Positions 19,759-20,691 of a stretch of DNA of 64,000 bases are shown piece after piece. Position 1 is the first letter of the stretch. Each line of letters opens with the position of its first letter. The position numbers and the translations under genes are program-made. The notes under the pieces were generated by a model. It was not told the origin of the DNA and ran no database searches. It worked only from the letters and a program-made list of their open reading frames with translations. This DNA is from Burkholderiales bacterium (lineage in GTDB: Bacteria; Pseudomonadota; Gammaproteobacteria; Burkholderiales; SG8-39), in NCBI GenBank assembly GCA_035702665.1, contig DASSQD010000035.1, positions 17,719 to 81,718 on the forward strand. The letters are read 5' to 3'.

Positions 19759-20691
19759 ATGAAAATAGCCATCATCGGCCAGCAGGACTTCGGCAAGGCG
19801 GTCCTCGACGCCTTTCTCGCGCGCGGCGACCAGGTCGCCGGCGTGTTCTGCGCCCCGGAGAAGGAAGGCGCCAAGGCCGACGTCCTCAAGGTGGCCGCGC
19901 AGGAAAAGGGCGTGAAGGTGTTCCAGTTCTCTTCGCTGCGGGACAAGCAGGCGCACGATACGATGCGTTCGCTCGGCGTGGACCTAGGGGTCATGGCCTA
20001 CGTGCTGCAATTCGCGCCGCAGGATTTCGTGAACATCCCGAAGAAGGGCACCCTCCAGTATCACCCGTCGCTCCTCCCCAAGTACCGCGGCCCGAGCTCG
20101 ATCAACTGGCCCATCATCCGCGGAGACACCAAGACCGGTTTGACCATCTTCCGTCCGAATGACGGACTCGACGAAGGTCCGGTGATCCTGCAGAAAGAGA
20201 CGCCGATCAGCGCCGACGACACCCTGGGTAGCGTATATTTCGACCGCCTCTTTCCCATGGGTGTGAAGGCGATGCTGGAAGCGGCGGACCTGGTGACGGC
20301 GGGCAAGCACAAGGAGACTGTCCAGGATGAGGCCCTCGCGAGCTACGAAGGCTGGTGCCGCGCCGCCGAGGCCAAGATCAACTGGGCGAACCACGTCGAT
20401 TTCACCTATAACCTCATCCGAGGCTGCAATCCGGCCCCGGGCGCATGGACCACGCTCGCCGGCAAGAAGGTCCAGATCTTCGACGCCCGCAAGCACCTGG
20501 TGCGCACGTTCGGCGCAGTAAAGGGCAAGATCGGCGAGATCTCGGAGATCGGCCCGCAGAGCTTCTTCGTAACCGCCCAGGGAGGTCGGATCGAGGTGCT
20601 CAAGGCGAAGCACGAAGACGGCAAGAAGGTCTCCGCTGCGGAATTCGTCTCGCAGAACGGCATTGCGTCGGGCGCTCTGCTCGGCGGCTAG
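19759..20691 (+). CDS. Formyltransferase-family protein (Fmt / 10-formyl-THF dehydrogenase N-terminal hydrolase-like, N- and C-terminal domains)
   Basis: 310 aa. [46 protein letters not shown] carries the formyltransferase His and Asp. The start lies 2 nt after the frc stop. Confidence 0.7.
   Translation: [310 protein letters not shown]

Follow-up and report, generated by a model that had tools for sequence, protein, structure and literature searches.

A stand-alone formyltransferase encoded in bacterial oxalate operons is a candidate link between formyl-CoA and the folate one-carbon pool

The 64-kb window analyzed here (the whole stretch of DNA under study, 64,000 nucleotides from a Burkholderiales bacterium with a G+C content of 63.6%) carries a formyltransferase-family gene at 19759-20691 on the + strand, directly behind oxc, which encodes oxalyl-CoA decarboxylase, and frc, the gene for formyl-CoA:oxalate CoA-transferase. 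By sequence comparison its product, for which we use the working name FTL (stand-alone FDH-N-domain-like formyltransferase), is homologous to the N-terminal formyl-transfer ('hydrolase') domain of 10-formyltetrahydrofolate dehydrogenase (FDH), here in the form of a separate bacterial protein, and belongs to a large, mis-annotated bacterial family that is nearest to this domain. The function that we favor, if only by a modest degree of confidence, is that of a reversible formyl-CoA:tetrahydrofolate (THF) formyltransferase, which would link the Oxc/Frc cycle to the folate pool. The initial annotation of this DNA had proposed that the enzyme connects formyl-CoA or formate to 10-formyl-THF, and this idea is backed by a conserved frc-FTL-fhs gene order, in which fhs encodes formate--THF ligase, as well as by the enzymology of related proteins.

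The FTL open reading frame (ORF) starts with ATG, encodes 310 amino acids and has the same codon-position composition as the neighboring genes, with a G+C fraction of 0.86 at third codon positions (GC3) versus 0.41 at second positions (GC2). The frc stop codon TAG occupies positions 19754-19756 and is followed by 'GA' and the FTL start codon at 19759, which agrees with the 2-nt gap given in the initial annotation; the peptide quoted there corresponds to FTL residues 100-145. In Pfam the protein matched Formyl_trans_N (residues 1-171, E 6e-32) and Formyl_trans_C (residues 202-299, E 5e-16), the domain architecture of methionyl-tRNA formyltransferase (Fmt), while no ACT domain was found, unlike in PurU. 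When solved structures were searched with FTL, the top six matches were all FDH/ALDH1L1 N-terminal domains (E ~1e-57, 199 bits, query residues 1-246; 1s3i, 2bw0 and 7rlu, with 4ts4 also listed), compared with scores of 138 bits for Fmt, 89 bits for ArnA and 39 bits for HypX. This ranking supports the earlier placement of the protein nearest to the FDH hydrolase domain and to Fmt/ArnA. Likewise, FTL was 42% identical to the N-domain of rat FDH over 245 amino acids and 31-34% identical to Fmt-type proteins. In a rough neighbor-joining tree, calculated without support values, the Fmt-type proteins fell outside, and the eukaryotic FDH N-domains were placed among bacterial proteins with an H-P-S-L-L-P motif. 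The homologue search scored 8,000 candidates and the search of representative proteins returned 505 clusters at E<=1e-30, both counts including Fmt- and FDH-type relatives. Where the sources name the family members at all, they call them 'methionyl-tRNA formyltransferase'.

The candidate catalytic residues of FTL are His102, Ser104 and Asp138. His102 and Asp138 aligned with His106 and Asp142 of FDH, as expected from the earlier statement that the catalytic His and Asp are retained, and together with Ser104 they match the complete FDH triad His106/Ser108/Asp142. All three residues were invariant in both alignments of diverse family members. In addition, the multiple alignment placed Gln100 of FTL at the position of the Asn of the N-x-H motif in Fmt, PurN and ArnA (LQYH in FTL versus INVH in Fmt), so that the exchange of Asn for Gln next to an intact His and Asp was read correctly in the initial annotation. 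However, its description of a 'variant active site' holds only for the exchange itself and not for a one-off oddity. The motif Q-[YF]-H-P-S-L-L-P around Gln100 is a signature of the bacterial family, with Gln present in 96% of 76 proteins from genome loci and in 90 of the approximately 125 nearest cluster representatives at 50% identity. Since FDH also lacks the Asn and carries Ile instead (I-I-Y-H), the deviation is a property of the whole branch and thus a family hallmark.

The same comparisons indicate that FTL is not Fmt, the Met-tRNA formyltransferase of the cell, because its score is below the fmt cut-off, the Asn is replaced by Gln and the basic loop for tRNA recognition is missing. The best NCBIfam model for FTL was indeed fmt (TIGR00460), but its score of 157.9 bits remained below the curated equivalog cut-off of 201.5, and the scores for PurU (TIGR00655, 26.9 bits versus a cut-off of 286), ArnA (NF005998, 123.6 versus 777) and PurN were far below the respective cut-offs as well. 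Insertion loop 1 of Fmt, with its basic residues, recognizes the acceptor stem of the initiator tRNA. In the multiple alignment the Fmt-type proteins combined I-N-V-H-[GA]-S-L-L-P with the loop PDRPAGRGKKLMPSPV, which we take to be the sequence of this loop in Escherichia coli Fmt, and the same insertion was seen in the Fmt-type database representatives P0232, P0251 and P0257. In contrast, FTL combined L-Q-Y-H-P-S-L-L-P with a loop 1 that was five residues shorter, non-basic and devoid of the RGKK segment, and FDH resembled FTL in this respect. No second Fmt-like gene was found within the 64-kb window. On plasmid pLA6_002 of a marine Paracoccaceae strain the FTL orthologue is labeled 'fmt_2' within an oxc-frc_5-fmt_2-fhs_2 array, implying another fmt elsewhere in that genome. 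The possibility raised at the outset that the gene might be the only fmt of its genome is thus contradicted in one annotated genome.

The initial annotation had asked how often the family follows frc. A profile-guided scan with one genome per species yielded 80 loci, distributed over Beta-, Alpha- and Gammaproteobacteria, Acidobacteriota, Chloroflexota and other groups. Adjacency was counted by tblastn of these loci with the window's own proteins, which requires no gene calls, using a threshold of at least 45% identity for Frc, while genes for a Pfam scan of the nearest neighbors were taken from a GC3-aware caller. Frc was located directly upstream of FTL on the same strand in 46 of the 70 loci with sufficient upstream flank, so that the adjacency is conserved and the view of FTL as an operonic partner of oxc-frc is borne out. 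In 23 of 71 loci fhs followed directly downstream of FTL, the number rising to 26 when any position in the locus was counted, and Oxc was present within 32 of 61 loci. Similar results were obtained with the nearest called genes, which contained CoA_transf_3 upstream in 42 of 66 cases and FTHFS downstream in 20 of 68. Adjacency to frc occurred in Beta-, Alpha- and Gammaproteobacteria, Acidobacteriota and Chloroflexota and extended over several FTL clades that are only about 50% identical to each other, which argues for selection rather than for shared ancestry of one operon. Genes for carrier proteins, sugar-nucleotide enzymes, nonribosomal peptide synthetases (NRPS) or polyketide synthases (PKS) did not recur next to FTL among the surveyed neighbors. 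Moreover, a fusion ('Rosetta stone') search of 150 representatives detected neither Frc-FTL nor FTL-Fhs fusions, the long matches being FDH of the eukaryotic type.

In Alphaproteobacteria the order is oxc-frc-FTL-fhs, and the adjoining Frc exceeds the equivalog cut-off (698-723 bits versus 504). When fch, folD and mtdA, whose presence would have pointed to the assimilatory direction, were sought behind fhs in ten of these operons, none was found, and a gene of the GST family, USP genes and others were present instead. In operons of the Xanthobacteraceae type the GST-family gene, encoding 228-244 amino acids, directly follows oxc-frc-FTL-fhs (L042:8624-9358, L049:10891-11577, L050:10678-11364); ORFs of matching length and position, recognized by these two properties only, occur in loci L051, L052, L055 and L070. 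The locus on plasmid pLA6_002 (180 kb; CP031587.1, 65036-83947; L081) represents a compact oxalate/serine-cycle island with ppc, sucCD-like genes, a GntR-type regulator, oxc, frc_5, fmt_2 (FTL), fhs_2, USP, tctABC, a ketopantoate-reductase-like gene and glyA2. Here, the sucCD-like genes possibly encode malate thiokinase, and the ketopantoate-reductase-like gene is a candidate for an oxalyl-CoA reductase gene. Two loci from Polynucleobacter and Burkholderiaceae (L029 and L030, 4818-7999) carry two tandem Frc paralogues before FTL with 50% and 56-57% identity to the Frc of the window, an arrangement that suggests two CoA-transferases with differing donor or acceptor preference in one operon. In a Bryobacteraceae locus (L009:1300-4977) FTL is followed not by fhs but by distant homologues of the alpha and NuoEF-like subunits of formate dehydrogenase (35-37% identity).

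Neither an adjacent frc nor an adjacent fhs was present in 17 of the 63 loci with both flanks, but 10 of these 17 still showed a related context. Most loci that lack frc show FTL in the company of sga, hpr, mtdA, mtkAB, fhs and PanE-type reductase genes, a setting that points to the serine cycle or to oxalyl-CoA reductase. FTL lies beside sga, hpr and a PanE-type reductase gene in L007 and L023; the same PanE type occurs in Polaromonas (L025-L027), and three Steroidobacterales loci with fhs (L019, L022, L041) contain mtdA and malate-thiokinase-like genes in addition. PanE2 of Methylobacterium extorquens is said, in work by Schneider and colleagues from 2012, to be the oxalyl-CoA reductase of this organism. 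Furthermore, oxc and frc are located about 6 kb downstream of FTL in L018, a Sga-like aminotransferase with 49% identity is encoded in L062, and CaiB/Frc-like CoA-transferases are present at three Chloroflexota loci (L059, L073, L077). At L059, FTL is paired with a thiamine pyrophosphate (TPP)-dependent enzyme of the Oxc/2-hydroxyacyl-CoA-lyase group that scores below all cut-offs, and the same arrangement is found in L061, which had too little downstream flank to enter the count of 63 loci. Similarly, frc and FTL of Acidobacteriota are paired with a divergent TPP enzyme of this group. Such enzymes stand beside FTL and Frc in Chloroflexota, Acidobacteriota and one gammaproteobacterial locus (L059:596-2260, L061:3523-5187, L010:4964-6676, L068:3463-5220); they are 23-29% identical to Oxc, and their best matches apart from acetolactate synthases are 2-hydroxyacyl-CoA lyase and Oxc, all below the cut-offs. 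Both of these families make formyl-CoA, and the divergent protein may represent another formyl-CoA-forming lyase that feeds FTL.

The enzymology of related proteins provides a precedent for the proposed reaction. In the N-domain of FDH, the residues His106, Ser108 and Asp142 serve to hand the formyl group of 10-formyl-THF over to the 4'-phosphopantetheine thiol of an acyl carrier protein (ACP), and the N-domain of HypX has been proposed to make formyl-CoA from 10-formyl-THF and CoA (PMC6802093), CoA having a phosphopantetheine arm like that on ACP. In addition, LctF from the lactacystin cluster of Streptomyces lactacystinicus was found in 2025 to produce formyl-CoA from 10-formyl-THF and CoA in vitro, as determined by liquid chromatography-mass spectrometry (PMC11730586). 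FTL shares with the FDH N-domain approximately the same length (310 amino acids), the motif x-Y-H-P-S-L-L-P-x-x-R-G, the His/Ser/Asp triad, the missing N-x-H Asn and the short loop 1. In contrast to FDH, however, it is a stand-alone protein without a fused ACP-like or aldehyde-dehydrogenase domain, carries Gln where FDH has Ile, Val or Cys, and is a bacterial protein encoded in oxalate/formyl-CoA operons, whereas FDH serves folate catabolism to CO2. LctF is a stand-alone protein of the Fmt-like type and catalyzes the very reaction proposed for FTL, but it belongs to secondary metabolism, where it feeds a PKS loading module, and no connection to oxalate, Frc or Fhs has been reported for it. The N-domain of HypX/HoxX (PDB 6j0p and others) has the Formyl_trans_N fold with His and Asp in common with FTL but is part of a fusion with an enoyl-CoA-hydratase-like decarbonylase domain, where the CoA is held, and its role is in the synthesis of the CO ligand of [NiFe]-hydrogenase. 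With 10-formyl-THF:CoA formyltransferases FTL can be compared through its genomic coupling to Frc in 46 of 70 loci and through the nearby Oxc or Oxc/2-hydroxyacyl-CoA-lyase-like TPP enzymes. Finally, FTL has two domains arranged as in Fmt, and the two proteins also share the fold that binds 10-formyl-THF and the His/Asp pair; FTL differs from Fmt by its score below the family cut-off, the Gln and the missing basic tRNA-binding loop, while ArnA and the sugar N-formyltransferases differ by the sub-threshold score of FTL and by the lack of recurring sugar-nucleotide genes among its neighbors.

According to the reaction that we infer, FTL would interconvert formyl-CoA plus THF and CoA plus 10-formyl-THF at the His102/Ser104/Asp138 site, with Gln100 replacing the Asn of the amine-formylating enzymes, and formyl-CoA, which is produced by Oxc and used by Frc, would in this way be joined to the folate one-carbon (C1) pool. 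No carrier-protein gene was found between FTL and the next gene of the window (20692-20937), and since such a gene is missing, a free thiol such as CoA would be the simplest acceptor. For a stand-alone FDH-type domain placed between Frc and Fhs, transfer between formyl-CoA and THF is thus the most economical reading. The reaction could plausibly run in either of two physiological directions, which do not exclude each other. In the direction from formyl-CoA to 10-formyl-THF, biosynthetic reactions or the serine cycle would receive C1 units from FTL, and the ATP consumption of Fhs would be avoided. This direction should be favored by roughly 10-18 kJ/mol, where this figure and the further energetic statements are our own estimates from the published Fhs equilibrium and typical energies of thioester hydrolysis, and it fits the serine-cycle contexts described above. 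In the opposite direction FTL would operate in series with Fhs, so that formate, ATP and CoA yield formyl-CoA, which would seed or refill the thioester cycle of Oxc and Frc. This cycle requires a CoA thioester to get started, and it loses thioester through hydrolysis of formyl-CoA and through reduction of oxalyl-CoA to glyoxylate. Only this second direction joins the four enzymes of the operon into a continuous chain, and by our estimate it can still hold micromolar formyl-CoA; moreover, it is the direction taken by LctF and proposed for HypX. A near-equilibrium bridge operating both ways is one possible description of FTL.

Several points weigh against this assignment. The natural acceptor of the FDH domain is a phosphopantetheine tethered to protein and not free CoA, LctF (LC830955) was likened to FTL by its reaction and description rather than by sequence, and the similarity of HypX to FTL, at 39 bits, is confined to the superfamily level. 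CoA-binding residues of FTL were not identified, because the AlphaFold2 model obtained from a shallow alignment of 40 close homologues was too poor for use and hence for pocket analysis (pLDDT 50, pTM 0.41). As to the relatives, the cryo-electron microscopy account of ALDH1L1 places the phosphopantetheine arm in the C-terminal ALDH domain, and the parts of it drawn on here name no contact residues in the N-domain (PMC8748788). Furthermore, 7 of the 63 loci, all with FTL proteins of at most 53% identity to that of the window, lack any C1 or oxalate context. With regard to energetics, the direction toward 10-formyl-THF brings no obvious net gain of ATP because it takes the thioester required by Frc, while the direction toward formyl-CoA is uphill and would, by our estimate, sustain only low levels of this compound.

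Among the other explanations, an enzyme that uses 10-formyl-THF to formylate a different acceptor, such as protein-bound phosphopantetheine, another thiol or an amine, with only a regulatory or indirect link to frc, would be in keeping with the varied acceptors of the superfamily (tRNA-bound Met, sugar amines, ACP) and with the minority of family members in unrelated contexts. However, the Asn typical of the amine-formylating members is replaced in FTL, no carrier-protein, sugar-nucleotide, NRPS or PKS genes recur beside it, and the genes that do recur there encode precisely the enzymes for the formation or use of formyl-CoA and 10-formyl-THF, so that we regard such a function as unlikely. Slightly less probable still appears an enzyme that hydrolyzes 10-formyl-THF and functionally resembles PurU; by releasing formate and regenerating THF it would act as a valve of the folate pool while the cells grow on oxalate or formate. 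The isolated N-domain of FDH does hydrolyze 10-formyl-THF in vitro, which speaks for such a role, but this activity needs an added thiol, implying that thiol transfer is the native reaction. In favor of hydrolysis are also the intact His/Asp site of FTL and the term 'hydrolase domain' in use for the N-domain of FDH (PMC6802093, PMC8748788). In contrast, the PurU model scored only 27 bits against a cut-off of 286, and a hydrolase leaves the dominance of frc among the neighbors without explanation. Since FTL is co-located and often co-transcribed with the ATP-spending fhs, hydrolysis would turn the pair into an ATP-wasting futile cycle, and since its main partner is frc rather than folate enzymes, formyl transfer is favored over the hydrolytic valve, both having been considered in the initial annotation.

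Least probable by a wide distance is a second methionyl-tRNA formyltransferase that is induced together with the oxalate genes. It would agree with the two-domain architecture, with TIGR00460 as the best NCBIfam match and with the public naming of the family, which stems from automatic annotation, but the score of 157.9 versus 201.5 bits, the Gln in place of Asn, the loop that is five residues shorter and non-basic, the closer relationship to FDH than to Fmt and the plasmid label fmt_2, with another fmt implied in that genome, all argue against it.

Returning to the formyl-CoA:THF formyltransferase, a more speculative extension, to which we assign a rather low likelihood, is that Fhs, FTL and Frc together constitute a previously unrecognized, ADP-forming route of oxalate activation with the sum oxalate + ATP + CoA -> oxalyl-CoA + ADP + Pi. 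In this route, Fhs would convert formate, ATP and THF to 10-formyl-THF, FTL would use CoA to yield formyl-CoA and THF, and Frc would transfer the CoA to oxalate with release of formate, so that formate and THF would both be catalytic. If true, this would solve the priming of the Oxc/Frc cycle as well as the replacement of thioesters drained by a PanE-type oxalyl-CoA reductase, and it would explain why oxc, frc, FTL and fhs travel as one operon. A corollary would be that the bacterial FTL family is the prokaryotic source of the N-domain of animal ALDH1L1, whose thiol chemistry would then derive from a CoA-dependent ancestor.

In the window itself, FTL is part of a larger set of genes for oxalate and formate metabolism. 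The frc gene (18485-19756, +) matched TIGR03253 with 564 bits (cut-off 504), and oxc (16688-18481, +) matched TIGR03254 with 971 bits (cut-off 739); the listed oxc ORF begins with TTG at 16688, but the ATG at ~16733 is probably the real start codon. Divergently from oxc, a Crp/Fnr-type regulator with a cyclic nucleotide monophosphate (cNMP)-binding domain is encoded at 15985-16650 on the - strand, a position it also holds in related loci. Next to it lies tctC-tctB-tctA (12699-15988, +) for a tripartite tricarboxylate-type transporter, which is kept beside oxc-frc-FTL in related loci and might serve the uptake of (di)carboxylates or oxalate. The fhs gene, which the initial annotation had counted to the oxalate gene set, was located at 10208-11926 (+; NF010030, 916 bits, cut-off 652). 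Between fhs and tctCBA lies a gene of the TerC/YjbE family (11976-12674) that belongs to the named families designated 'R_switched' (riboswitch-associated). At gathering thresholds Rfam returned no riboswitch or other RNA family in the whole 64 kb, and thus no ZTP or folate-related element 5' of fhs. The block fhs-terC-tctCBA-crp/oxc-frc-FTL, with fhs in first place, is found in the same order in L015 and in L082-L084, the contigs that carry P0020, a 90%-identical orthologue of the FTL of the window.

At the beginning of the window an MFS transporter of the oxalate/formate-antiporter (OxlT) family is encoded at 568-2238 (+), in which the 31-residue 'MFS transporter small subunit' domain (NF047966; 'MFS_OXA_tail') is fused at residues 526-556 instead of being separate. 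It is followed by an NAD-type formate dehydrogenase (2333-6851, +), consisting of a molybdopterin alpha subunit (4044-6851; TIGR01591, 761 bits, cut-off 666) and a diaphorase (2333-4027) that forms a single ORF of 564 amino acids in which a NuoE-like (2Fe-2S, thioredoxin-like) and a NuoF-like (FMN/NADH) part, corresponding to the gamma and beta subunits, are fused.

On the other side of FTL, positions 20692-20937 are intergenic, and a scan for consensus terminators revealed nothing convincing 3' of the gene. Directly downstream follows a signaling cluster (20938-29283) that encodes two CHASE2 proteins, one a Ser/Thr kinase and the other an adenylate/guanylate cyclase, together with a PP2C phosphatase and an FHA protein. 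As judged from the synteny with L082, a class-II cNMP phosphodiesterase/metallo-beta-lactamase protein and a cNMP-binding rhodanese protein come next in the cluster, which adjoins the oxalate operon in related Burkholderiales as well (L001, L003, L008, L011, L013, L031, L082-L084). Because the regulator at 15985-16650 also contains a cNMP-binding domain, a local cyclic-nucleotide circuit might control oxc-frc-FTL.

To our knowledge, Oxc and Frc are regarded as a self-contained pair of enzymes that degrades oxalate in a closed cycle, which leaves the priming of this cycle and its link to C1 metabolism open. A full-text literature search, with many subscription papers outside its reach, returned no paper that includes a formyltransferase among the enzymes of the oxalate pathway and no description of formyl-CoA:THF transfer in primary metabolism, and the term 'formyltransferase' was absent from a 2024 review of oxalotrophy. 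FTL is not a new kind of enzyme, because its chemistry has precedents in LctF, HypX and FDH. What appears to have gone unrecognized is a widespread, mis-annotated family that occupies a conserved place in oxalate and C1 operons. If the proposed function is correct, FTL would be a third enzyme of oxalotrophy and a branch point that is missing from the textbook pathway, relevant to soil, plant-associated and possibly gut bacteria, and its assignment would correct the systematic mis-annotation as methionyl-tRNA formyltransferase. It would likewise provide a natural, ATP-free bridge between formyl-CoA and formyl-THF for formyl-CoA-based pathways in synthetic biology. In addition, the FTL family is a plausible bacterial origin of the thiol-directed formyl transfer in ALDH1L1, a candidate tumor suppressor in humans.

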